From contig CAWBEG010000001.1 of the NCBI GenBank assembly GCA_963787755.1, forward strand, positions 28,089-92,088: DNA of 64,000 nucleotides, given 5' to 3'. Position numbers and translations under genes: made by a program. Below, in pieces: positions 2,123 through 42,270 of the stretch; the first letter of the stretch is position 1; each line of letters starts with the position of its first letter. The notes below the pieces were generated by a model. It worked only from the letters and a program-made list of their open reading frames with translations, searched no databases and had not been told where the DNA came from. Source of the stretch: Vicinamibacterales bacterium. Its GTDB lineage: Bacteria; Acidobacteriota; Vicinamibacteria; Vicinamibacterales; JAMQPK01.

Positions 2123-2785
2123 TTCCTGCGGGCCGACTTCCCGCGCGGACGCCACACCGTTCCGAAGTCCGAGGTTTCGCACGTCGGGAACGCTCTCGCT
2201 GACCGTCACGCAGCGTGCATTGCGGGACGAGCCTTCACACAGTTCCCAGGTCCCGCCATAGACCTGGACGCTGCGGGCGCTATCGCCTCCGAGGTTGGTC
2301 GCGCTGTTCAGCACATTTCGTGCGTCGCCGCGGAAATTCGGGCGATCGAACAGCACCAGCCGCGACTGGCGGTTGTTGGCGTTGGCTCGCGAATTGCCCC
2401 ACATCCCGCCGCGGTTGCTGTTGCCACGCGCGAACCCGACGGCGCGCATCGAAGAAATGCGATCGTTCCAGCCCTCGGACCGGAGATCGTCGATCGTGCC
2501 TTGGAACACGCGGCATCCGCCGCCGAAGTTGACGTCACGGCACACTTCCCACGCCTGGTTGCCGTCGACCTCGAGGCTGCTGATCCGATCGTTCAGTCCT
2601 TCCTCCCGCAGGTCGCGCACCTCGTTGCGGAAGGTAAAGCTGTCGCCGCGAAAATTCGGATCCTCGTACACCGTGATACCGCTGTATCCGTTATATCCGC
2701 CATTGCCCCTCCCGCGCTGCGCGGACGCATCGAGCGAAAACGCCGAAACCGCCAGAGCGAGGGCCAGTGCAAACCGCAGAGTCAT
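2108..2785 (-). CDS. Secreted beta/gamma-crystallin domain protein
   Basis: Signal peptide MTLRFALALALA; repeated Greek-key motifs YEDPNFRG...NDRISS, WEVC.D.NF.G.C, FDRPNFRG. Confidence 0.85.
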   Translation of the reverse strand: MTLRFALALALAVSAFSLDASAQRGRGNGGYNGYSGITVYEDPNFRGDSFTFRNEVRDLREEGLNDRISSLEVDGNQAWEVCRDVNFGGGCRVFQGTIDDLRSEGWNDRISSMRAVGFARGNSNRGGMWGNSRANANNRQSRLVLFDRPNFRGDARNVLNSATNLGGDSARSVQVYGGTWELCEGSSRNARCVTVSESVPDVRNLGLRNGVASAREVGPQELVDW

Positions 2786-2981
2786 ACGCACCTCCGAAAC
2801 GGCGTAGTGCAACCGCCGTGCCGTTGAAATTCCTAATAAAAACGGGCAATTTCGAAAAGTATGACGTCGCTGTCCGCGCTCAAGGACAGCACCTGCGTTA
2901 CCGGAATTGGAACAGGAGATCAGGAGTTCAGGAGGCGTGTCTCAACATTTTTGAAAATCAGCGAAGTGGGACTCGAGAGGA

Positions 2982-4384
2982 CTACCGCTCGATCATTTCA
3001 ATCGCCGTGTCGGTCTGGAGCGCGAAGCGGCCCCGGCCAGTTGAGACGATCTGTACGTCCGGGCATTTTTCCTGAAGGCGATGGCGCAGCAGGATGAGGC
3101 GGCTCTCGAAGTTGTCCTTCACCGGCGGCAAGCCGAGCGATTCGTCCAGCCGCACTTCGCGGTTCGTGAATTCCGTGCGCCCCGTGCGCTGCGATTCGTC
3201 GAGCAGCTTCCACAGAATACGCGCCGGGATGTTGCGGATCAGATATTCGCCGTCGACGAAGATCGCGTCGTCCTTCCTGTAATAGGTCAGCGTGCGTTTC
3301 TTCTTCGCAGGGTTTACCACTTGCCCCTGCCCCTCACCCCTCGCCCCTCACCCCTTACCCCTTTCGATGGCCGCGCCGGCGAAGCGTCGGCGTCCGTGTC
3401 AAGAGTCGTCATCCGATCGATGCCCAGCGCGATCTGGTTGCCGATAATCTGCAGATACGCCTCGTGCCATTCACCAAAGCGCATCGGATCGCGATCTTCG
3501 GCCGACAGCACGCCGACAAGGCGATCGCCGACCGTCAGCGGAATGGCCAGGGTGCTTTTCGCGTCGGCCAGTCCTGGGAGCGGGATGTCCGCGCACGCGT
3601 CCTCGCTGGCGGCCTCGCGGCGAATCGCGCGCCCATAGGCGAGGTCCGCATCGAAGCTGCTGAAGCGCAGCACCTGGCGATCTCGCGCGGCGGTGCCGAT
3701 CACCCCCTCGCCGAGCCGCACCTCCGCGCCGATGCCGCTCTCGCCGTAGCCGCGGCTCGCGAGCGTCACGAGCTTCCCGCAGGGCTCGTCGTACAGCAGC
3801 ACGCTCGTGTGCCTGAACGTAAAATATTCCTCGAGCGCCTCGAGCGCCGCATGCAGCAGCGTCTCGAGATCGCGCGCACGGTTGATGCGCTCCGACACCC
3901 ATTGCAGCCCACGCACCTCCGAGCGGTGCCCTGCAAGCGACGGGGCCTCCGATGCGACCTCGGGGCGACCGGCGACGAGAAACCCTTCCACTCTTTCCAG
4001 CGACTGCACTTCGAACACGTCCGCCGCAATCAAACGGAAAATGCCTTTCATGCCTGTCGCCGACGCGATGGCCTCTATGCGCGCCGACATCGTGTCGAAC
4101 AGCGGCCCCTGATTCTCCGACCGCAGGAATTTCAACCTGATTCGGTACGCCTGAAGGGTAAGCGGATCGACCATCTCCACGCACGCGCGCGGGTTCTCGT
4201 CGAGATTGCGGCGCGTCTTGTTGAAGAACTGGCACGACAACGCAACGTGTCGCTCGTCAAGGTAATAGACCTGGCTGACGTACGTGATGTTCGGTACGCC
4301 GCGTCCATCCACCGTGGCGATGAGGCTGGGCGTGACTCCCTGAAAGCAGCTCGAAAGGTCCGATAACTTCACGGGTGCGGTCAT
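2982..4384 (-). CDS. PNPOx-like (FMN split barrel) + GAF + C-terminal winged-HTH regulator, split by a 1-nt frameshift near 3325
   Basis: N-term [21 protein letters not shown]...[12 protein letters not shown]; GAF with GEGVIG and [15 protein letters not shown]; ORF 2982-3320 continues in frame if one base is added to a 6-nt unit within a 7-nt repeat. Confidence 0.8.
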
Positions 4385-4836
4385 CGCAGACGGGTGCCGG
4401 CCTTCGGTCCAGGTGATTGTTCGTAGATTTCTTCGACCCGCATCTCGAGCGCGAAGGCAGGCCAATGCGTAATCGACCGCGTCACGCGCAACGGATAGCC
4501 GATGGTGTTGAGCACGCCGCCGAAGCCCGCGAAGTGCTCGACGATGAACGGTTCCTCGTCATCGCGTGCGGGACGGGTGCGCTCGACGACACCTTTCAAC
4601 TGCGTCGCGCAATGCGAGATGGGGTGTGTCGTGACGATCGCCAGCCGTTCGGTGACGGCGACATTCGCCATCGTGTCGGTGCTCGTGGCCACCGGCACGA
4701 ACACCGTCACCGTCGCGAGGTCGTCGTCAGACCTCAATCCGACGGCGCGGCAACACGACGGATTCCCCGCCGCGTCCACCGACCCGACGATGACCGAGAC
4801 GCCAGGTTCCACGCATTTGCGAAGACGTTCGTTCAT
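4381..4836 (-). CDS. Pyridoxamine 5'-phosphate oxidase-like FMN-binding protein
   Basis: VGSVDAAGNPSCCRAVG, QLKG, VEEIYEQSPGPKAG; ATGA overlap with the downstream GAF gene. Confidence 0.75.
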   Translation of the reverse strand: MNERLRKCVEPGVSVIVGSVDAAGNPSCCRAVGLRSDDDLATVTVFVPVATSTDTMANVAVTERLAIVTTHPISHCATQLKGVVERTRPARDDEEPFIVEHFAGFGGVLNTIGYPLRVTRSITHWPAFALEMRVEEIYEQSPGPKAGTRLR

Positions 4837-31407: not shown

Positions 31408-34400
31408 TCAGCGAATCCGGACGATTATCCAGGAGTTCCCGCGCTTCTCGAACGTGAACTCCTGGGTGCGATCTTCGTTCCGCGTTCTGCCTACCTTAGG
31501 TTGGAAGAAATGGCTCAGCCGCGCGACAGCCGTAGCTGAGTTCAAGTCGGGAGCGAAGTTCACCCTTTGGACCACGAGCTCCAGGCGATAGAACTCGTAT
31601 TGCGCGAATGTCGTCGCCAGGTTTGCCGGCGCGCCGGGATACAAGGCCCGCACCGCTGCAGCATCGAGATTGTCGTAGGCCGATTCGTATCGTTCGAGCG
31701 CCCCTCTGATGCGTCTTTCCTCTTCGAGGCGATCGGGGACCGGTGGCGTCACCGCTTCGGGTGCCGGCGGCTTGGCGGTAACGACAGCCGGCGGAGGATT
31801 CTCGACCGGCTCCTTCGTGACGGCTGGGGGTATCTCAGGCGCCGGCGTCTTGGTGACGGGCGGCGGCGAAGTGGTCTCTGAGGGAACTGGCGTCGGTGGT
31901 GCACCTGGACCGGCGGCTTTGCCGTCGTCGCTGGTTCGGTCGCTCCACCACGCGACGGCGGCGCGCCTCGTCTGCCGCTCGCAGTCGTCGGTGGCTCGAC
32001 AGGGGCAGGCGACGGAGGTTTGACCGCGGCACTCGGTGGAATGGCGGTCGCTGCTGGTGGCGGATTCGCACCGGCAGGCACCTGGACAGATGGCGTCGTC
32101 GCTGACCGCACCCCCGCGACTCGGCGTCGTGGATGGCAGGTCGGTCTGCGCCTGGGGCGCCGATTGTTCTGGGGCGGGAGGACGATTCAACACGGTGAAG
32201 TAGAGTCCGACTGCTGCGACCAGAACAGCTGCCGCCGATCCGTAGCTGATCAAGCGAGATATCGGCGCACGCCGCACTTCCGGCGGTGCCTCCAGAGCGG
32301 GCGATGGCAATGGCGTCGCTTCGCTTGCGGGCGATGGCAACGCGGACGGCGACGGTGACGGCGCGATTAGCGGATAGACACGCTGAAAGTGGAGGCGTCG
32401 GAGCTCGACAGGCGGAAGGCCGGCCTGCTCGGGCAGCGGCTCCTCCCAGTAGACGGGCCTCACGAAGTGTGGACGGTTCAAAGCGAGCGCCTGCCGCCAC
32501 TCTTCCCGCACAAGCGGTGAACTCAACGCGTTCCACGACCAGAAGAGCTGGAAGACATCGGCCTGCTTCATGATCTCGAGCAGCCGTTGATCCCAGACTT
32601 CGCCCGCGCGCAGCGTCACAACGTCGCGAAGATATCTATCGCCGGTCGCAACGGCATGCCTTTCGAACTCCTCGACGATGGCGGTGTCGCGGTGCGAGTA
32701 GGAGGCAAAGATTCGCCGGTAGGGCCGCGCGTGCGTCTCTTCCTCGTGCGACTCTGCCGGCTTCCGATCGACCTTGATACTCAGCTGCACCTCGGCGAGC
32801 AGAAGATTTCCGTAGAACACCGACAGGGCGCCTCGAGCGACGTGCCCATCCATTGATTTATCAGCGCGGAGCCGGAAGTCTTCGCGGTGCACGCTCTCGG
32901 TCCACAGGAACCGGCGTTCTGGCGGGTTGAACGTCACCCCTTCCATGTGTGGCACAAATCGCAGCTCGCCTTCGCGCGCGACAGGGTACCCGCTGTCTTC
33001 GGTCGCGGACCGGAACTTACCCATGTCATCGCCCAACAGTTGCCTGGCTTGTGCCTTGACCTCTTCGATCGGATCGGGCTCGTCCGGCGGTGCGTCGGGC
33101 CGCCGATCGGCGAGATGAGCGAAGGCAAGAAGCGGATACCAGTGCTCAGGCTGGATCGCGGACCGTCTGAAGACCGTAAACTGGACGTTCTCGTCCATGG
33201 CGACGGGTTTCTGCGCGGCCGCGGCAGCTGCCTGTGATGCCCGTTCTTCCTCGATTCGTCGTCGCTCGTTCTCCTGCTTCCGCCGCTGTGCGTCTTCTGC
33301 CTCTTTCTGCCGCCGCGCCTCGGCTTCTTTCTGCCACCGCGCCTCGGCTTCCTTCTGCCGCTGCGCCGCGGCTTCTCTCTGCCGCTGCACCTCCGCTTCT
33401 CTCTGCCGCTGCGCTTCGGCTTCTTTTTGCCGTTGCGCCTCGGCTTCCTTCTGGCGCTGTGCTTCGGCGGCAAGCCGCCTCGCTTCATCCTCCTTCTTTA
33501 TCCGCTCGCGTTCTGCTGCAAGGCGGCGCTCCTCCTCCTCTTTCTTGCGGCGCTGCTCCTCCTGTCGGCGCTGCTCTTCTTTTCGGCTTTGTTCCTCGGC
33601 GAGTCTCTGCGCTTCTTCCTCCTTCTGGCGCCGTTGCTCTGCCGCCTTGCGCTCTTCTGCGAGGCGCCGCGTTTCCCGTTCCTGCCGTTCCCTCTCCTGC
33701 CGTTCCTTCTCCTGTCTCTCCTTCTCTCGCCGTTCCTTCTCCTGCCGTTCCCTTTCTTCGCGCGCCTTCTTCTCGGCCAGTGCCAGTTCCTCGGCGACAC
33801 GCCGTGCCTGTGCCTCCTCCTCCGCGCGACGAAGCTCTTCGCGCCGTGCTTCCTCTGCGGCAACCTTCTGCTGGATCGCTCCTGATTCCTCCTCGAGCTC
33901 ACGAAGCGCCTGGGAGACGAGCTCCTGCTCAGGACTGAATTCGCGCAACAACGCCAGGGCGTCCTGATGCTGGCCCGCCGCGAATCGGGCACGCGCGTCT
34001 GTCACTGCCTGCTGTGCTCGACGCTTGAGATCGCGTTGTCGCCGCCGCTCCTCGAGCGCCGACTGCGCTTTCGACTTGATGCCTAGCGCTTCCAGTTCTC
34101 CAGACTCGACGCCCAGAGCATCTTCGGCGGAGCGGACTGCGGCCTCGAAGTCACCCTCTTCAAAGCTCGCCCGCGCGCGATCTTTCGCAGCTTGGATAGT
34201 ACGCGCCCGTTCGCGTTCCCTCTCGCGCTCGCGCCGCAGCTCCAGCATCTCGCCCCGAATCGTCAGCGCCTGCTTCGAATCGCGATCGACCGACAGCGCC
34301 TGATCGATCAGGTCAGACGCTTTGCCGATATCTCCCTGGCTCAGTGCCCGCCGCGCATCTTCGAGCCATGCGTTGATTTTCCGCTCATCGAGCGCCTTTC

Positions 34401-35094
34401 TTGCGCGATCCATGAGGTCGAGCACATCCGGCATCTGGGGATCGAGAAGCAACGCCTTGTCGCAGGCCCACAAGGTCCCTTCGAAATCCCCCGACTCGAA
34501 CGCCTGACGTGCGTTGGCGAGTTGGGAGGCAATTTCGCGAGCTCTGCGTTTCTGCACATCCATGAGCTCCGGACGCGCTGGCGCCTGCGGCTTCGCGACG
34601 GATTCGGCGACCGCATGCTCGATGGCTTCAATGAGGAGCCGAACGTCCGACTCCCACCGCCCATCGCTGAGCTCGACGGCATTTCGAAAGGCGAGGTCGG
34701 CGAGATCGGATGGCAGGTCCTGGGCAGCGGGCATCGGGGCCCGTTCGATCAGGATGGGAATGACCCGAATGCGCTCGTTCTTGAGTGCGGTCGCTACTTC
34801 AACGCGCAGAAAATCGTCGGGGTTATCCAGGCGCCGGCGCTTGAGGCGGGGATCCTGGATGCTGAGCCATTCTCGCCCGATGATGGCGAGAAGGACGGAG
34901 CACGATTCGAGCTCGTTCTTGATGAACTTGAGGAAGTCCGCCCCGGGCGGAATGTTGTCAGTGTCCTTGAAGATGCGGTCGGCGCCGAAATGACTCCGCA
35001 ACGAGGGCAGCAGGGCCAGGACATGCCCCGAGCTGTCTTCGCGGCGATAGCTGATGAAAATCCGCGATGAGGTTTCAGCATCGACGCCGGGCAT
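31408..35094 (-). CDS. Membrane-anchored protein: TIR, TPR/coiled coil, second TIR, TM helix, Pro-rich linker, NTF2-like domain
   Basis: IFISYRREDS...DFLRVEVATAL; IFASYSHRD...LVREEWRQAL; EAEAQRQK repeats; TM AAAVLVAAVGLYFTVL. Confidence 0.85.
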   Translation of the reverse strand: MPGVDAETSSRIFISYRREDSSGHVLALLPSLRSHFGADRIFKDTDNIPPGADFLKFIKNELESCSVLLAIIGREWLSIQDPRLKRRRLDNPDDFLRVEVATALKNERIRVIPILIERAPMPAAQDLPSDLADLAFRNAVELSDGRWESDVRLLIEAIEHAVAESVAKPQAPARPELMDVQKRRAREIASQLANARQAFESGDFEGTLWACDKALLLDPQMPDVLDLMDRARKALDERKINAWLEDARRALSQGDIGKASDLIDQALSVDRDSKQALTIRGEMLELRRERERERERARTIQAAKDRARASFEEGDFEAAVRSAEDALGVESGELEALGIKSKAQSALEERRRQRDLKRRAQQAVTDARARFAAGQHQDALALLREFSPEQELVSQALRELEEESGAIQQKVAAEEARREELRRAEEEAQARRVAEELALAEKKAREERERQEKERREKERQEKERQERERQERETRRLAEERKAAEQRRQKEEEAQRLAEEQSRKEEQRRQEEQRRKKEEEERRLAAERERIKKEDEARRLAAEAQRQKEAEAQRQKEAEAQRQREAEVQRQREAAAQRQKEAEARWQKEAEARRQKEAEDAQRRKQENERRRIEEERASQAAAAAAQKPVAMDENVQFTVFRRSAIQPEHWYPLLAFAHLADRRPDAPPDEPDPIEEVKAQARQLLGDDMGKFRSATEDSGYPVAREGELRFVPHMEGVTFNPPERRFLWTESVHREDFRLRADKSMDGHVARGALSVFYGNLLLAEVQLSIKVDRKPAESHEEETHARPYRRIFASYSHRDTAIVEEFERHAVATGDRYLRDVVTLRAGEVWDQRLLEIMKQADVFQLFWSWNALSSPLVREEWRQALALNRPHFVRPVYWEEPLPEQAGLPPVELRRLHFQRVYPLIAPSPSPSALPSPASEATPLPSPALEAPPEVRRAPISRLISYGSAAAVLVAAVGLYFTVLNRPPAPEQSAPQAQTDLPSTTPSRGGAVSDDAICPGACRCESATSSDRHSTECRGQTSVACPCRATDDCERQTRRAAVAWWSDRTSDDGKAAGPGAPPTPVPSETTSPPPVTKTPAPEIPPAVTKEPVENPPPAVVTAKPPAPEAVTPPVPDRLEEERRIRGALERYESAYDNLDAAAVRALYPGAPANLATTFAQYEFYRLELVVQRVNFAPDLNSATAVARLSHFFQPKVGRTRNEDRTQEFTFEKRGNSWIIVRIR

Positions 35095-35161
35095 TTTGTG
35101 ACGTTATCTCCCCTTGGCTGATGCAGCGGAGTGTACCCTAACAGCCTTATTCCGCATAAGG

Positions 35162-35722
35162 TTATCCGTGCGACCCCAGGGTCAGGACGTCCATGATTTC
35201 GAACCCGCGCCGCCCGGCCGATTCGCGAAACCGCGCCGTCAGATCGACGCCGGGCCGGGGGCGCCCGTCCCAGACAACCATGGCTACAAGACGATCGCCG
35301 TTCTCTCTGGCGATTCGCTCTGCTTCGGCAAGGACCGCCTCGCCCACGGCGGCATAGCCGTTATCGTCAAGGCTCTCGTCGAGGATTAGGACGTCTCCGA
35401 CGGCCTGGAGCTGCAGCATCGTTTCGTCGAACAACGGCCCCCAATCGCCCGGCCTGTCGATGACAGACGTCTCTCGAAAGTGCTCCGGATCGAACGGCAA
35501 TATGACGCGCCTCCGCAAACGCAGATCGGCTGCCGCCGAAAGGGCGAGGAGGTCGGCACCGCAGGCAGCCGAGGTGACGAGGGAGGTCGCTCCGGACCGC
35601 ACCAACGTCTCATTGATGCGCTGCCGAGTCTCGTAGATTGCCGCCGACGGGAATCGCGTGAACGTCGCGTCATCCGGATCGATGCGCCGTCCGGCCGCCG
35701 CGACAATGGCGCCTCCTTTCAC
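35162..35722 (-). CDS. Stand-alone SLOG (SMF/DprA-LOG) superfamily protein
   Basis: AAAGRRID, TSAACGADLLA, VILPF...F..TSV, VWDG. Confidence 0.7.
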   Translation of the reverse strand: MKGGAIVAAAGRRIDPDDATFTRFPSAAIYETRQRINETLVRSGATSLVTSAACGADLLALSAAADLRLRRRVILPFDPEHFRETSVIDRPGDWGPLFDETMLQLQAVGDVLILDESLDDNGYAAVGEAVLAEAERIARENGDRLVAMVVWDGRPRPGVDLTARFRESAGRRGFEIMDVLTLGSHG

Positions 35723-35771: not shown

Positions 35772-36401
35772 TCAGTGAGCGAGGATGCCGGCCATGCGCC
35801 GTCGATCCGCGTTCATTTCAATCACTGTGCTCCGAATTGACTTGCCCTGCTCGCTCGTGAACCCCAGCACGCTCATCTCAACACTTTGAATTTGATCCCG
35901 ATCCCACCGGCCACTCATGATTCCTGCGAATGAGTGCGACCCCCGCCCCAGGAGGAGATGACCCAGTTCGTGTGCCATGACACAGCCAAGAATCTTCGCT
36001 GGATCGGTCCCATGCCGCCGAGCAGACGCCTCTATTCGTTCGTGGAACGCATAGGCCAGTCGACCCGTGCCATCGTCCCCAGCTGGCGCCGCACCCAAAG
36101 CAGTCGCGACAACCCTTTCGGACCAGGCATCTGGGCTGGAAACGATGAGCATCGTGAGGCGAGGGAGTAAAGACAAAGGGTCGGTCTCCCAGACGAGCCT
36201 TACTCCCACGGCCGCATAGATTCGCGCGGTTTCGGTCTGTGCGCGCACGAGCATGTCAGGACGAACGCCCGCCACGGTGCCCACGAGAATCCGTATCGCG
36301 AGCAGGTCCGGTTCGGCACCGAAAGCCGACAATGTGGTACCCGCCGACCCGGCCACCACAATTCCCATCACCACCACCAGATTGCGTGCCGTTTTCGCCA
36401 T
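35772..36401 (-). CDS. Secreted HExxH zinc-metalloprotease-like protein
   Basis: Signal peptide; MAHELGHLLLG..SH...GIM. Confidence 0.7.
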   Translation of the reverse strand: MAKTARNLVVVMGIVVAGSAGTTLSAFGAEPDLLAIRILVGTVAGVRPDMLVRAQTETARIYAAVGVRLVWETDPLSLLPRLTMLIVSSPDAWSERVVATALGAAPAGDDGTGRLAYAFHERIEASARRHGTDPAKILGCVMAHELGHLLLGRGSHSFAGIMSGRWDRDQIQSVEMSVLGFTSEQGKSIRSTVIEMNADRRRMAGILAH

Positions 36402-36514: not shown

Positions 36515-37066
36515 TTGCTGGCATGGAGGGAAGGGGACGAGGCGGCCCTCACCCGGCTGATACCGCTTGTTCACGCCGAACTGCAGCGCATCGCGCGGCG
36601 TTGCATGCGTGGTCAGCCGCCTGACCACACACTGCAGGCGACCGCGCTGGTGAACGAGGCGTACGTGCGGCTCGTTGACGTGCAGAAGATGAACTGGCAG
36701 AACCGCGCGCACTTTCTCGCGATGTCGGCACGATTGATGCGCCGCATTCTGGTCGACTCGGCGCGGGCCCGCGGGGCTCACAAGCGAGGCGCCGGCGTGG
36801 TCAGAGTGTCCTTTTCGGAAGGGCTCGCCGTCACCAACCCGAAAGGCCTCGATCTGGTGGGCCTGGACGACGCCCTTCAGGCCCTGGCCGACATGGACGA
36901 ACGACAAAGCCGGGTCGTGGAACTGCGCTTTTTCGGCGGTCTGAGCGTGGAGGAGACGGCCGCGGTGCTGGGGATTTCGGGCGAGACTGTGGCGCGCGAC
37001 TGGAAGGTGGCGCGGGCGTGGTTGATGCGCGAGATGAAACACCGCGGCGCTAATCATGACGCCTGA
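36515..37066 (+). CDS. ECF sigma factor, Ser/Thr-kinase-associated type
   Basis: HTLQATALVNEAY, NRAHF, RRILVD.AR, VELRFFGGL, RDWKVARAWL; true start probably near 36474. Confidence 0.92.
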   Translation: MLAWREGDEAALTRLIPLVHAELQRIARRCMRGQPPDHTLQATALVNEAYVRLVDVQKMNWQNRAHFLAMSARLMRRILVDSARARGAHKRGAGVVRVSFSEGLAVTNPKGLDLVGLDDALQALADMDERQSRVVELRFFGGLSVEETAAVLGISGETVARDWKVARAWLMREMKHRGANHDA

Positions 37067-39638
37067 ACGCTGGCGTCAAATCACCGAGATATTCCACGCC
37101 GCGTGCGAGCGCGATCCGGCGCGCCGCGAAGCGTTTGTCGCCGAGGCATGCGGGGACGATCCGGCGCTGCGGCTGGAGGTTGAGGCCATGCTGGTGGGAC
37201 TCTCTGACACCAGTCAAATTGGAGAGATCCCGCTGTTTGCATCGGCGTCACGATCCGGCCCGGCCTCCCCACTCGACGTTCGAGAGCTGGCCCCTGGCTC
37301 GTTCCTGGGACCGTATCGGATTCTCAGCCTCCTGGGAGCTGGTGGCATGGGTCAGGTCTACAAGGCCTTTGATCCTCGCCTGGACCGCGAGATCGCGGTC
37401 AAGGTTGCGGCCGAGCGCTTCAGCGAGCGATTCAATCGTGAAGCGCGCGCCGTCGCAACCCTGAACCATCCGAACATTTGCACGCTGCACGACGTCGGCC
37501 CCAACTACCTCGTGATGGAGCTGGTGGAAGGCGAAACGCTGCGTGAATGGCTCAGGCGCTCGCTGCCCCTCGAGCGAAGCCTCGAGATCGCCAGGCAGGT
37601 GCTTGGAGCACTTCGCGCTGCGCATCAGGCGGGCATTGTCCATCGCGATATGAAGCCCGAAAACGTGATGGTGCGCTCCGATGGTTACGTGAAGGTGCTC
37701 GATTTCGGTCTTGCGGCGCGGATGCCGACAGCTCATCTGCCGCAGGCAGAGACCAGCGCAACAACCGACGTGACATTCATCGCACGTGACACCGAAGACG
37801 TCGACAAGCGACGTCTCAGTCTTCCCGGTCAGATCCTGGGGACGATCCCGTACATGTCACCGGAACAAATCCAGGGGCACGAGGTCGATCAGCGCAGCGA
37901 CCTCTTCGCGTTCGGGATCATTCTCTATGAAATGCTGACAGGGCGACATCCGTGGCCTCGCCCGTCACCGGTAGATATGCTCCACGCGATCCTGCACGAT
38001 GATCCTCCTGCGATTCATGCCGCGTCTTTGATGGACGCAGAGTTGGCCGCTATCGTACAGAAGCTTCTCCGCAAGAGTCCCGCGGAGCGATATCAGGTGG
38101 CCGACGCGGTTCTCGAGGTCCTCGGAAGCCATCCGGCTTCCCGGGGATCGTCGGCAACGAGCGTGGCGGGTCCGACTCCCCTCACATCGATTGCCGTGCT
38201 GCCTTTTGTTTTCTTGAGCCAAGTCGAAGAAGCGAGAGGATTCTCGCTGGGGTTTGCTGATGCATTGATTACGATGCTCGGCAGGCTCGACGACATCACC
38301 GTCCTTCCGACATCGGCCATCCTCAACTATGCGGCTGGGACAGACCCTGCCTGCGCGTGTCGCGATTTGGGGACGCGCCACCTCTTACAAGGGAACGTCC
38401 AGAAACTGGGAGACCACTGGCGCGTCTCGCTGCACCTCTTCGATGCGATGATGCAGAAGAGCATTTCTTCCGAGCAGCACGACTTTGTCCTGGAAAGCAT
38501 CTTCGACGTGCAGGACGAAATTGGACGCCAGGTGGTGGAATCGCTGCGAAAACGGTTTCCGCCTGCCGTGCCGAAATCCCGCGATCGGTACAGCAGCGAC
38601 CCGGAAGCGTATAACGAATTCATGGCCGGTCTCCGTGAGAGTTACTCTGACCGGCGGGACACCCTCGAGAGCGCCATCCAGCATTTGTCGACGGCCATAG
38701 AGCGCGACCCTGACTTTGCCCTGGCCCACGCCTGGCTGTCCTATGTCTTGACGAACGTGCATTTCACCTTCGACCCGCGGCCCGTTCGGCTGGAGAAGGC
38801 GGAACACCACTGCCGCCGCGCCCTTATGCTCGACCCCGCGTTGCCGGAGGGACATCTGGCGCGGGCATTTATCCTGTGGAGTCCGGCAAATAATTTCCAG
38901 CACGCTGAGGCCCTCGAAGCGCTGGAGCGGGTTCTGGCCGTCCAACCAAATCTCGAGCAGGCGCATAATCGAATCGCCTCGATTTGCCTGCACGTCGGAC
39001 GACTTCAAGAAGCGCGCGTCGCCCACGAACAGGCGCGGCGGTCGAATCCAAGGACCCGAAGCGGCAGCCTCGAGTACTACTTACTCTATAGCGGCGACTT
39101 CGCAGGCGCGGAAGAAGCAGGCGAAGCATGGATTCGGGAAAGACCGGGAGCCACGTATGCGCTCTGTTTTCAACCACAACCTCCACTTTTGCGTGGGGAC
39201 CTCGATCGAGCCGAGCAACGGTTGGCCATGGCTCTTCAACAACTTCCCGGCGAGCCTTTGATCACCAGCCTTCAAGGCATTCTGTACGCGCGGCGCGGTC
39301 AGACCGGCCTGGCGCTCGAGTGTGTTCGCCGGGCGCTCGAGTTGCCGCGTTCCTTCGGCCACACGCATCACACCTACTACCAAATCGCCAGCGTGTACGC
39401 AGTCCTCGGAGAAACGGACAATTCGATGGCATGGTTGGAACGCAGCGTCGACACCGGTTTCGCCTGCTGGCCCTTCTTCCGCGTGGATCCACATCTCGAA
39501 AATCTGCGTGAGAAGACAGAATTCCAACGGCTGGTCGCGGACCTTGAACACAAGTACACCGCTCTGAAGATCCAGAGCGTAGCGCTAGGGACCTCCTATG
39601 CCACAGGACCGGACACATCGAGCAGGCGGGTCGATTGA
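37056..39638 (+). CDS. Ser/Thr protein kinase with TolB-N-like and TPR domains
   Basis: MTPERW, GAGGMG.VY, HRDMKPEN, DFGLA, YMSPEQ, SIAVLPF, TPR-like helices; no TM helix evident. Confidence 0.95.
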   Translation: MTPERWRQITEIFHAACERDPARREAFVAEACGDDPALRLEVEAMLVGLSDTSQIGEIPLFASASRSGPASPLDVRELAPGSFLGPYRILSLLGAGGMGQVYKAFDPRLDREIAVKVAAERFSERFNREARAVATLNHPNICTLHDVGPNYLVMELVEGETLREWLRRSLPLERSLEIARQVLGALRAAHQAGIVHRDMKPENVMVRSDGYVKVLDFGLAARMPTAHLPQAETSATTDVTFIARDTEDVDKRRLSLPGQILGTIPYMSPEQIQGHEVDQRSDLFAFGIILYEMLTGRHPWPRPSPVDMLHAILHDDPPAIHAASLMDAELAAIVQKLLRKSPAERYQVADAVLEVLGSHPASRGSSATSVAGPTPLTSIAVLPFVFLSQVEEARGFSLGFADALITMLGRLDDITVLPTSAILNYAAGTDPACACRDLGTRHLLQGNVQKLGDHWRVSLHLFDAMMQKSISSEQHDFVLESIFDVQDEIGRQVVESLRKRFPPAVPKSRDRYSSDPEAYNEFMAGLRESYSDRRDTLESAIQHLSTAIERDPDFALAHAWLSYVLTNVHFTFDPRPVRLEKAEHHCRRALMLDPALPEGHLARAFILWSPANNFQHAEALEALERVLAVQPNLEQAHNRIASICLHVGRLQEARVAHEQARRSNPRTRSGSLEYYLLYSGDFAGAEEAGEAWIRERPGATYALCFQPQPPLLRGDLDRAEQRLAMALQQLPGEPLITSLQGILYARRGQTGLALECVRRALELPRSFGHTHHTYYQIASVYAVLGETDNSMAWLERSVDTGFACWPFFRVDPHLENLREKTEFQRLVADLEHKYTALKIQSVALGTSYATGPDTSSRRVD

Positions 39639-40248: not shown

Positions 40249-41634
40249 CTACGACTGCTGGTCCAGTATCTGCGATATGGTCTCGAAGAACTTCTGCAGC
40301 GGATTCCTGCGGCGCCATTCGTCGAGGTTGATGGCCTTCGCGCGCGGGAGATCGTTGTCGAACGTCGCGTGGAGCTTCGCTCCTAACCCCGCGTCGTAGA
40401 TCCCGAACGCATTCTCTTCGTCGAGCTCCCGCGAGCGTGAGTTGAGGTTCGGCGAGCCGATGATTGACCACTTGCCATCGACCACGCCGTACTTCGCGTG
40501 CATGAACGTCGGCTCGTACTCGTATATTTTTGCGCCGGCTTCCAGCAATTCCTGATACCGCGCCTGCGCGCTTGCGCGCGTGATCCAGTTATCCGTGCGC
40601 GGACCTGGCAGCAGCAGCCGTACGTCAACCCCTTTCTTCGCCTTGTCGACGAGCGCAGACTGCAGATCCTTGTCGGGGATGAAATATGGCGCCGCAAAGT
40701 AGATGGATTCGCGGGCCGACAAGACCGGCAGCAGGAAGAAATAGGCCATCGACTGGTCATCGTCGGCGGGCGAGTTGGCCAGATGAATGAACCGTTCCAC
40801 ACCGGGCGTCGACGCATTGGCCGGAACGGGATAATGCTTCGGATCGATGAGGAGTTCGCCTGAAGAGCTCACCCACAGATCGACGAACGCCGTCTGGAGA
40901 CTTCGCGCCATCGGCCCCGTCACCTTGAACATCAAGTCGCGCCAGTGCTCGGGGTCCTGCGCATGGCCAAGCCAGATGTCCGACACCGCCATGCCACCGG
41001 TAAACCCGACGTCGCCGTCGATGACGATCGAGCGGCGATGGCTGCGGCGGTGAAACCGAGTGAGCTTGCCGAATTTCGGCGTGCGGAACTTCTGCACTTT
41101 GCCGCCGGCCGCAATCAGCGGCTCGAAATCTTCGTCGGGCACCTTGAGACTGCCCAGGCCGTCGAGCAGCACACGCACCTCGACACCCTGACGCTGCTTC
41201 TTTTCGAGCGCGCGGAGCAGTTGGTCGCTGAACGTCCCTTCCGTCCAGATGTACACCGTGAAATTGATGGTGCGCTGCGCCTGGTTGACGCTCTCGAGCA
41301 GAGCCGGCACGAACTCGTCGCCATTGTCGAGGATGTGAACCGTTCCTCCACCCTCGACGGGTGCACCCACAATCGCGCTGAGCGCCGTGGCAAAGTCCGG
41401 TGAATCGACACTGGGTGGCGCGCTATCGGTATAGATTCGCGCGGGCTTGTAGCCCACGGCAAAGAACAAGGCACTCATCACGGACACGAAGGACACGACA
41501 CCGATCACGAACAAAGCGAGCTGCCACCATTTATAGCGGCGCCGAACGGCGTGCCAGCGGGCTCCCATCCCATGTGATGCCGTGCTTACCCGTGGTCGCA
41601 CCTTGTGGCCGATGTGCACCGAATCTGTACGCAT
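40249..41634 (-). CDS. cls: Cardiolipin synthase / phospholipase D family
   Basis: Two HKD-type motifs: HRRSIVIDG (variant) and HAKYGVVDG; start uncertain (41568-41634). Confidence 0.88.
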   Translation of the reverse strand: MRTDSVHIGHKVRPRVSTASHGMGARWHAVRRRYKWWQLALFVIGVVSFVSVMSALFFAVGYKPARIYTDSAPPSVDSPDFATALSAIVGAPVEGGGTVHILDNGDEFVPALLESVNQAQRTINFTVYIWTEGTFSDQLLRALEKKQRQGVEVRVLLDGLGSLKVPDEDFEPLIAAGGKVQKFRTPKFGKLTRFHRRSHRRSIVIDGDVGFTGGMAVSDIWLGHAQDPEHWRDLMFKVTGPMARSLQTAFVDLWVSSSGELLIDPKHYPVPANASTPGVERFIHLANSPADDDQSMAYFFLLPVLSARESIYFAAPYFIPDKDLQSALVDKAKKGVDVRLLLPGPRTDNWITRASAQARYQELLEAGAKIYEYEPTFMHAKYGVVDGKWSIIGSPNLNSRSRELDEENAFGIYDAGLGAKLHATFDNDLPRAKAINLDEWRRRNPLQKFFETISQILDQQS

Positions 41635-41769
41635 TAAAACTCCGTCCTGCGCTAATGCAAGATCCGGGCGCAGCGTCGAATCGGGCATCCGGTTTGCACT
41701 TGGACGAGGCGTGCTGCCAGGCAAGCTCAGTCGATATACCAGTTCGGATACTGAGGGCCCCAGCACAGC

Positions 41770-42270
41770 GAACGAATCCCCTGAGCCGGAACGCCTTGCG
41801 AAAGATTTGGAAAAACTCGGCCCGACATCGTCGGCCACTACTTCGGAGCGTCGCTTCAGGAGTTTCAGGTCGGCAGGATCGTCCTCGCAGTGAACCAGTC
41901 CGCGGGCGCGCACGGCATCAAGTCGCCGGTCGAGCTCACCATGCTGGGAAAGACGCTGTTGACGCTCGACAACGTTGCGAGGACCCTGGCGCCGGCGCTC
42001 GACGTCAACGCCTCGATCAGGAAGAATGCGTCGAGTCTGATGCAGCGCAGGTTGCTGAAGAGCCTGTCGCCGGGCACTGTGTTCACGACCGTGCTCGAAG
42101 CGAAGGAGTTCGCCGAACAACTGCCGCGCCGCATCAACCGCGTGCTCGAATCACTGGCCAGCAGTCAGCTGAAATTGAAGGTCCCGGCTTCCCAACCGTG
42201 CTCATGCTGATGCCGGCAGCCTTGGCCTTTGGCTGATCCACAGCATCATCACCCATGACCGGGTGCAAGA
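41770..42270 (+). pseudogene. Internally deleted ABC1/UbiB (AarF) kinase remnant
   Basis: ERLAKDLEKLGPT then GIKSPVELTMLGKTLLTLD...LAP.LD...EQLPRRINRVLE; kinase core absent. Confidence 0.6.

Follow-up and report, generated by a model that had tools for sequence, protein, structure and literature searches.

A free SLOG-fold protein beside a membrane-anchored dual-TIR protein in a Vicinamibacterales bacterium: a candidate split Thoeris-like signalling pair

To our knowledge, nearly all characterised Thoeris-like systems are compact operons of soluble proteins. Systems that combine TIR with SLOG domains, and others built around the TPR-S domain, were reportedly predicted by Burroughs, Aravind and colleagues, the TPR-S prediction being ascribed to Burroughs and Aravind in 2020. 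Here we describe a locus in a 64,000-nucleotide stretch of a Vicinamibacterales genome (assembly GCA_963787755.1, contig CAWBEG010000001.1, positions 28,089 to 92,088, hereafter the window), in which the gene of a stand-alone SLOG-fold protein of 186 amino acids (P0002) adjoins that of a predicted membrane protein of 1228 amino acids with two TIR domains (P0001). According to the Yirmiya preprint, the TIR-SLOG and TPR-S predictions have been partly validated, and four of the described types of Thoeris are relevant here. In type I, the SLOG domain of ThsA senses the TIR product 3' cyclic ADP-ribose (3'cADPR; bioRxiv 10.64898/2025.12.03.692087). Type III consists of several TIR proteins and the SLOG protein ThsD (van den Berg et al. 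2024), termed SMF/DprA-type (PMC13276650), and its signalling is given as uncharacterised (bioRxiv 10.64898/2025.12.03.692087). In type IV, the effector is a caspase-like protease, activated by the N7-cADPR that the TIR protein makes (bioRxiv 10.1101/2024.10.24.620036). Type VIII pairs ThsB with ThsI, a CMP-hydrolase-TPR effector activated by cADPR, of which the TPR part is presumably the receiver. By comparison with these descriptions, the P0002/P0001 pair appears nearest to types III, IV and VIII.

We put the probability at roughly 55% that the pair makes and handles the signal in a split Thoeris-like system, which would use nucleotide signals derived from nicotinamide adenine dinucleotide (NAD+) in conflict or immunity. 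The enzyme activity and the defence role of the pair are predictions from sequence. What is unusual here is the combination of a membrane-anchored two-TIR generator, a free SLOG protein and an unlinked effector. A literature search returned no description of a membrane-anchored dual-TIR protein with a free SLOG, although one may have been published elsewhere. An earlier note on this DNA, made from the letters alone, had recognised no named system in this architecture. Named relatives of the arrangement do exist, in type III with its TIRs and SMF/DprA-type SLOG and in type VIII with its link to TPR-S.

Both open reading frames (ORFs) are intact, and the 67-nucleotide gap that the earlier note had placed between the 186- and 1228-amino-acid genes was confirmed. 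The GTG start of P0002 is supported by its relatives, which begin with M/V-K-x-G. The source genome (G000; 5.0 Mb in 21 contigs, 75% complete) contains a single copy of the P0002-type SLOG family and only three TIR_2 ORFs, and the adjacency of the two genes is therefore more than chance.

P0002 belongs to a large unnamed family without a Pfam model. There were 2459 homologues at E <= 1e-3 among 4019 candidates, and those that carry a name are called 'hypothetical protein'. By adjacency and by fusion, this family is wired to TPR-S sensors and to patatin and CHAT effectors. We found 95 longer proteins that contain a P0002-type SLOG and classified them with local hidden Markov models (HMMs). TPR-S was present in 80 of them, in the orders SLOG-TPR-S (35 proteins), SLOG-TPR-S-patatin (29) and TPR-S-SLOG (16); eight further proteins were patatin-SLOG, three were SLOG-patatin, and four joined SLOG to other or unrecognised parts. 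According to the precomputed Pfam column, a class III cyclase domain is present in ten of the TPR-S forms as well, and a CHAT domain in one, P0336. A TIR domain was fused to this SLOG in none of the 95. The fusion partners of the P0002-type SLOG are thus exclusively receiver or effector parts, which places this SLOG on the receiving side.

The ten cyclase-bearing proteins (P0358-P0367) are about 610-720 amino acids long and combine a class III adenylate/guanylate cyclase with TPR-S and a more distant SLOG (E 1e-9 to 1e-14). Such fusions hint at cross-talk between NAD-derived and cyclic nucleotide monophosphate signalling.

The genomic company of the family was surveyed in one genome per species, with 311 relatives found and 80 loci kept. 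These loci belong to genomes other than that of the window and came mostly from Acidobacteriota, with some from Alphaproteobacteria, Cyanobacteria, Chloroflexota and others. ORFs in flanks of up to 6 kb (some contigs were shorter) were called greedily by length and searched with local HMMs seeded from Pfam-verified domains; Pfam confirmed 48/48 of the resulting TPR-S segments, 42/45 of the TIR segments and 37/39 of the patatin segments. At least one TIR, TPR-S or patatin ORF lay in the flanks of 54/80 loci, and within 300 bp of the SLOG gene in 52/80. By type, the flanks contained TIR in 26, TPR-S in 44 and patatin in 35 loci, and the nearest 300 bp contained them in 16, 27 and 33 loci, respectively, with none of the three in 28. 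The most frequent combination was patatin with TPR-S (16 loci), followed by all three types (12), TIR with TPR-S (9), TPR-S only (7), patatin only (5), TIR only (3) and patatin with TIR (2); the other 26 loci had none. At least two TIR ORFs were found in 14 of the 26 TIR-bearing loci, and nine TPR-S proteins of 584-690 amino acids in the 80 loci also end in a P0002-type SLOG. The link between TIR and SLOG that the earlier note had drawn from one locus thus extends to the family as a whole, together with TPR-S and patatin. Among the other recurrent neighbours compared with PDB sequences, two gave no match and one was a PAS-histidine kinase. On a 214-kb plasmid of Lichenicola cladoniae (NZ_CP053711.1, L099, record positions 2255-4613), genes for a 131-amino-acid TIR, a 194-amino-acid SLOG and a 441-amino-acid TIR-TPR-S protein form a unit that adjoins an MmeI-type restriction-modification system and recombinase genes.

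The adjacency and fusion to TPR-S resemble the TPR-S systems and type VIII Thoeris. However, there is no TPR-S effector beside the pair in the window, and the only TPR-S match in the source genome is a DUF7379-CHAT-TPR-S protein of 1462 amino acids on another contig (C18; L083:7711-12099, minus strand). This protein has no SLOG of its own and no TIR gene nearby. It is 44% identical over 998 amino acids (residues 491-1437) to P0336, a CHAT-TPR-S protein that ends in a SLOG domain with 43% identity to P0002. P0336 is thus a Rosetta-stone fusion that links P0002 to the CHAT-TPR-S protease, and it makes an in-trans link directly testable. Signalling from a TIR to a CHAT protease, a member of the caspase family whose sensor region would be C-terminal, would recall type IV Thoeris. 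Unlike in type IV, the protease is not in the TIR operon here, and what links it to the pair is the P0336 fusion together with co-occurrence; compared by description, the C18 protease carries TPR-S (and SLOG in its relatives) where the type IV effector has an unnamed C-terminal domain. The earlier note had described the SLOG protein as lacking an effector. This is correct locally, but probably not for the genome, since the same SLOG is fused elsewhere to TPR-S-patatin and CHAT-TPR-S and a CHAT-TPR-S protein with 44% identity to such a fusion is encoded on C18. The genome also has two patatin matches.

The SLOG assignment of P0002, likewise proposed in that note, is borne out by structural comparison. 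The AlphaFold2 (AF2) model of P0002 has a predicted local distance difference test (pLDDT) score of 92.4, and VIA-align superposed it best on Bacillus subtilis YpsA (2nx2; Z 16.3, 155 residues aligned, root-mean-square deviation 2.8, 17% identity), the founder of the YpsA clade of SLOG proteins, followed by DprA (Z 13.4), ShosA (Z 13.0) and LOG-type proteins (Z 8-10). The best 13 Foldseek matches were all YpsA, ShosA or DprA (2nx2, E 4.6e-6), and Atlas features gave YpsA-family clusters at 0.88 as a lead only. The model, a three-layer alpha/beta Rossmannoid fold, therefore superposes on YpsA, DprA and LOG structures alike, and we are confident that the predicted fold is SLOG, nearest to YpsA and DprA. 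The fold match to the 3'cADPR-bound SLOG of ThsA is distant (Z 7.1). The locus resembles type I Thoeris (ThsB TIR with ThsA SIR2-SLOG) in that a TIR gene adjoins a SLOG-domain gene, but Pfam and PADLOC found no SIR2 or other effector domain in P0002, which is thus not a SIR2-SLOG protein, and the PADLOC match to ThsB is marginal (E 0.0024).

By sequence, P0002 matched nothing in Pfam, PADLOC or NCBIfam, the best match of its family profile among PDB sequences was not significant (E 0.2), and tblastn against phage genomes gave no match at E <= 0.01. A 34-member family alignment contains the invariant motifs AGRRxD, SAACGADL, SVxDRPGxW and VWxGxxRxxxD. In the model, the invariant polar residues lie at the C-terminal ends of strands 1, 2, 3 and 5, the ligand crest of Rossmannoid folds. 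G55-A56-D57, invariant in 34/34 members, stands at the end of strand 2 and may correspond to the GxD/E signature that follows strand 2 in the YpsA clade and is predicted to bind substrate (PMC6459960). P0002 differs from YpsA in its low identity and in giving no Pfam YpsA match; moreover, the same paper describes YpsA of Firmicutes as acting in cell division and oxidative stress and does not place it beside TIR genes. Prediction of a complex between TIR1 and P0002 returned 'no answer' (score 0.00) in both runs, which weighs neither way.

P0001 is composed, in order, of TIR1, a helical TPR-like region, a charged coiled coil, a beta-sandwich, TIR2, a transmembrane (TM) helix, a Cys/Pro-rich linker and an NTF2-like outer domain. 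The note had claimed two dissimilar TIR domains, each with a glutamate at the expected position. Indeed, Pfam TIR_2 matches twice, BLASTP detected no similarity between TIR1 and TIR2, and both glutamates are invariant: E99 in 10/10 TIR1-type domains adjoining SLOG genes and E865 in 26/26 relatives of the TIR2 module. Glutamate at this position is the catalytic residue of SARM1-type TIR domains. The alignments behind the correspondence are weak. TIR1 aligns with Caenorhabditis elegans TIR-1 (8p2m) at E 0.089, with DFLRVE(99)V opposite DWVHKEL, and the TIR2-module profile, compared with PDB sequences, places E865 against the glutamate of the TIR-TPR protein 9m0n at E 0.71; the TIR2 segment alone gave no match among PDB sequences. 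The TIR2 model resembles MyD88 (Z 11.0), SpbK (10.2), RPP1 (10.1), ThsB (9.2) and SARM1 (9.1). Family or fold and a conserved glutamate are thus found in both domains, which on the alignments keep the residue used by TIR NADases and cyclases. More than one TIR domain together with a SIR2-less SLOG whose fold is nearest to YpsA/DprA recalls type III Thoeris. The differences are that the two TIRs here belong to one membrane-anchored polypeptide with an outer domain, and that P0002, compared with ThsD by description only, has no match to Pfam DprA.

The remaining parts of P0001 are of less even standing. The earlier note had placed TPR-like helices and a long charged coiled coil between the TIRs, followed by a TM helix and an external domain. 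The coiled coil (71% E/K/R/D/Q at residues 400-632) and the single TM helix stand, whereas all TPR matches (residues 243-390) fall under the Pfam gathering scores and the outer domain comes from language-model features only. The idea that P0001 has its own TPR-S in the repeat region was dropped, because hhalign against the TPR-S alignment gave a probability of 2.3%. AF2 modelled residues 640-935 as a beta-sandwich followed by the TIR (pLDDT 87.6). The beta-sandwich (residues 633-790) has no Pfam family, and its structural matches are generic (Ig/ZU5/FIIND-like and MG domains, Z ~8-8.7); a ZU5/FIIND or MG name was not adopted for such middling matches. Arginine on the N-terminal side of the TM helix suggests that both TIRs are cytoplasmic and the protein is bitopic, and from this topology alone we infer that P0001 may be triggered at the envelope. 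The outer domain has no Pfam match, while Atlas features relate it to Cds6_C/DUF4440 clusters (0.92, a lead only); it is kept in the relatives P0125 and P0130.

The beta-sandwich and TIR2 together (residues 633-935, window positions 32290-33198) form a widespread module in which the beta-sandwich always comes first. Its cluster representatives number 5606 at E <= 1e-3, of which 1486 at E <= 1e-30 show ~55% identity. Ser/Thr kinases, Hsp70-like ATPases, GAF-SpoIIE (GAF-PP2C) and AAA domains are the fusion partners of the module, which also occurs alone with a TM helix and NTF2-like tail (P0130, P0133). In the 80 SLOG loci, phmmer found no beta-sandwich match and only one weak TIR2 ORF (L009, E 1.5e-4). 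TIR2 is therefore a separately mobile add-on and not part of a conserved core. The dual-TIR architecture emphasised in the note is real in this genome, and independent dual-TIR relatives (P0125, P0127, P0131, P0132) show that the fusion is not an assembly artefact, but the closest complete orthologue has TIR1 only.

That orthologue comes from the nearest public relative of the locus, a Vicinamibacterales metagenome-assembled genome (L001/G198). Its SLOG gene is 76% identical and is followed, with the same 67-nucleotide same-strand spacing, by the gene of a 796-amino-acid protein composed of TIR1, TPR, coiled coil, TM helix and a CarboxypepD_reg-like outer domain. This protein matches P0001 over residues 1-621 only and has no TIR2; synteny with the window breaks inside the 24-nucleotide repeat array of the coiled coil and resumes past the gene. 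The C-terminal half of P0001-type proteins thus undergoes cassette-like replacement between close relatives. P0125, a relative with 93-95% identity, lacks most of the coiled-coil spacer. Because of this and the L001 breakpoint, the 24- and 15-nucleotide repeats may be a hotspot of recombination and length variation.

We surveyed 25 genomes of the genus and 201 of the order. In the genus, the SLOG gene was found in 3/25 genomes (G000, G198, G205), a TIR1-TPR orthologue of at least 74% identity in these and G204, and CHAT-TPR-S in the three SLOG-bearing genomes as well as in G125 and G203. In the order, the P0002 family is patchy (8/201 genomes). The pairing of SLOG and TIR genes noted from the window recurs in three of the four same-genus genomes with the TIR orthologue and on a metagenome contig (L093); in G205 and on L093 the SLOG lies beside a dual TIR. 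The gene upstream of SLOG is not conserved among the relatives compared. In G203, G204 and G205, several long genes (dual-TIR, SLOG, CHAT-TPR-S) contain frameshifts or in-frame TGA codons, which could mark pseudogenes or an indel-prone assembly.

We propose that a trigger, perceived either outside by the NTF2-like domain or inside the cell by the repeats, would cluster P0001 through its TPR-like and coiled-coil region, upon which TIR1, and possibly TIR2, would cleave NAD+ and yield an ADP-ribose-derived signal. P0002 would bind this nucleotide, and possibly trim or turn it over, in a role like that of the SLOG in ThsA. It would then pass activation to an unfused effector, the best candidate being the DUF7379-CHAT-TPR-S caspase-like protease on C18. 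NAD+ depletion by the TIRs themselves could be a secondary output. In its fullest form the proposal is a three-part immune pathway split across the chromosome, with a bitopic dual-TIR envelope receptor, a free SLOG and a CHAT-TPR-S protease acting in trans from hundreds of kilobases away. Ligand binding would then be the task of a detachable subunit, the SLOG, which interchangeable effectors (patatin, CHAT, cyclase) would share. We regard this extended version as tentative and somewhat doubtful. If the proposal is true, an unnamed SLOG family of >2,400 sequences would repeatedly accompany TPR-S, patatin and CHAT effectors, either as a free protein or as a fused domain, and the membrane-anchored TIR generator would suggest sensing at the envelope. 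Generator and effector would not be neighbours, and defence finders based on operons would miss such a case.

Several observations weigh against a split Thoeris-like system. The window contains no TPR-S, patatin or other effector gene near the pair, and the proposed CHAT-TPR-S effector sits on another contig. Nor do the surroundings clearly form a defence island: among ten neighbouring ORFs, PADLOC gave only generic matches to a kinase (PD-T4-6) and a PLD protein (DrmC), and for the pair itself PADLOC-DB 2.0.0 (2023) returned nothing for P0002 and domain-level TIR only for P0001. P0002 matches none of the Pfam SLOG families YpsA, DprA and LOG by sequence (YpsA not even at E <= 1), and the fold does not reveal its ligand. 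The 26 of 80 SLOG loci without any partner type, although some lie on short contigs, belong here too, as does the TIR2 module, whose fusion mostly to kinases, Hsp70-like ATPases and GAF-PP2C would equally fit ordinary signal transduction. Among the relatives, the G205 and L093 assemblies have frameshifts in SLOG and/or TIR genes (through decay or sequencing error), G204 (62% complete) has a syntenic but frameshifted dual-TIR gene with no SLOG gene adjoining, and G125 and G203 have CHAT-TPR-S without SLOG. Co-occurrence in the genus rests on three related, phylogenetically non-independent genomes, and because these are kin it is a lead and not a test.

The polarity of the pathway could also be the reverse, with the SLOG making or maturing the signal, TPR-S sensing it and the TIRs serving as effectors that deplete NAD+, like patatin and CHAT elsewhere. 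Such an arrangement would explain why SLOG is the constant part while TIR, patatin, CHAT and cyclase vary, and why TIR-TPR-S fusions recur beside a free SLOG, in cyanobacteria as on the Lichenicola plasmid. P0001, however, is without TPR-S, so the TIRs of this locus would have no signal sensor. The many invariant charged residues of P0002 look enzyme-like, and a published prediction casts SLOG proteins as sensors or as signal-generating or signal-processing enzymes; yet P0002 is a single domain of 186 amino acids without an evident trigger-sensing part, and in characterised Thoeris the TIR is the generator while SLOG (type I) or a TPR-bearing effector (type VIII) receives. We consider the reversed order unlikely.

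It seems similarly improbable that the pair serves envelope or stress signalling outside immunity, in which the membrane TIR protein would report a periplasmic cue through an NAD-derived messenger or TIR-TIR scaffolding and the SLOG would be a housekeeping regulator. The bitopic topology with an NTF2/Cds6_C-like outer domain would suit such a function, and so would the fusion partners of the TIR2 module; the nearest structural match of P0002, YpsA, points the same way through its described effects on cell division and oxidative stress in B. subtilis (PMC6459960), as do neighbours such as an ECF sigma factor with a Ser/Thr kinase, an M23 peptidase and an outer-membrane protein, none of them a known defence gene. 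A housekeeping regulator would hardly fit the patchy distribution in genus and order or the cassette-like swapping of the C-terminal half between close relatives, and the fusion or adjacency of the family to patatin and CHAT, typical suicide effectors, and the plasmid copy beside a restriction-modification system argue for conflict. Least probable is that the two genes are neighbours without shared function, or what decay has left of a more complete TPR-S/patatin system, as the lone TIR gene of G204, the frameshifts in three relatives (G205, L093, G204) and the lack of a nearby effector might suggest, because both ORFs are intact, their spacing is kept in L001, the genome has so few TIR and SLOG genes, and TIR ORFs lie within 300 bp of SLOG in 16/80 unrelated loci. 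A split Thoeris-like system is thus the reading we prefer, and the features of the locus on which it draws are collected in Table 1.

Table 1 Features of the P0002/P0001 locus and its surroundings (window coordinates; aa, amino acids; nt, nucleotides)
Feature	Position	Strand	Basis or remark
P0002, 186 aa, stand-alone SLOG-fold	35162-35722	-	ORF and translation, GTG start
Spacer between SLOG and TIR genes, 67 nt, AAGGGGAG upstream of P0001 ATG	35095-35161	-	Sequence read
P0001, 1228 aa, predicted bitopic membrane protein	31408-35094	-	ORF and translation, ATG start
TIR1, residues 12-152	34639-35061	-	Pfam TIR_2, E 7.5e-11 (N-terminal 421 aa scanned alone)
E99 codon of TIR1	34798-34800	-	Motif LRVEVATAL, residues 96-104
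Helical, TPR-like region, residues 166-400	33895-34599	-	Sub-threshold TPR_14, TPR_16, TPR_19
Charged coiled-coil spacer, residues 401-632	33199-33894	-	Composition, tandem repeats
Tandem repeat, 15 nt x 4.8, in coiled-coil spacer	33680-33751	-	Repeat scan
Tandem repeat, 24 nt x 7, in coiled-coil spacer	33302-33468	-	Repeat scan
Beta-sandwich domain, residues 633-790	32725-33198	-	AF2 model
TIR2, residues ~793-909	32368-32718	-	Pfam TIR_2, best stretch 795-900, whole-protein E 9.4e-23
E865 codon of TIR2	32500-32502	-	Motif VREEWRQAL, residues 862-870, E864/E865
TM helix, residues 948-969	32188-32253	-	Kyte-Doolittle, sole window above 1.6
Cys/Pro-rich linker	31705-32187	-	Translation read
Outer domain, residues ~1131-1228 (~100 aa), NTF2/Cds6_C-like	31411-31704	-	Atlas language-model features
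209-aa ORF, signal-peptide-like N-terminus, HELGH	35772-36401	-	49 nt upstream of SLOG gene
ECF-type sigma factor ORF	36515-37066	+	Translation reading, not family search
860-aa Ser/Thr kinase with TPR repeats	37056-39638	+	Start overlapped 11 nt by sigma-factor ORF
623-aa protein, two PLD-like domains	40249-42120	-	Weak PADLOC DrmC matches, E 1.3e-11, ~4.5 kb from pair

The G+C content of the window is ~63%. A scan of the minus strand between 31000 and 37200 gave no terminator, the three terminator-like sites there all being on the opposite strand, and a promoter scan near the pair was uninformative (one promoter-like site vs 0.5 expected). Neither Pfam nor PADLOC gave a match for the 209-amino-acid ORF that precedes the SLOG gene; this ORF is not conserved in L001, and from its motif and N-terminus it is a possible secreted metalloprotease. 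The DrmC match of the 623-amino-acid protein is probably a generic resemblance between PLD domains. The generic nature of the PADLOC matches nearby is what leaves the surroundings without a clear defence island. The genes of the sigma factor and the Ser/Thr kinase form a pair of their own, divergent from the SLOG/TIR pair.

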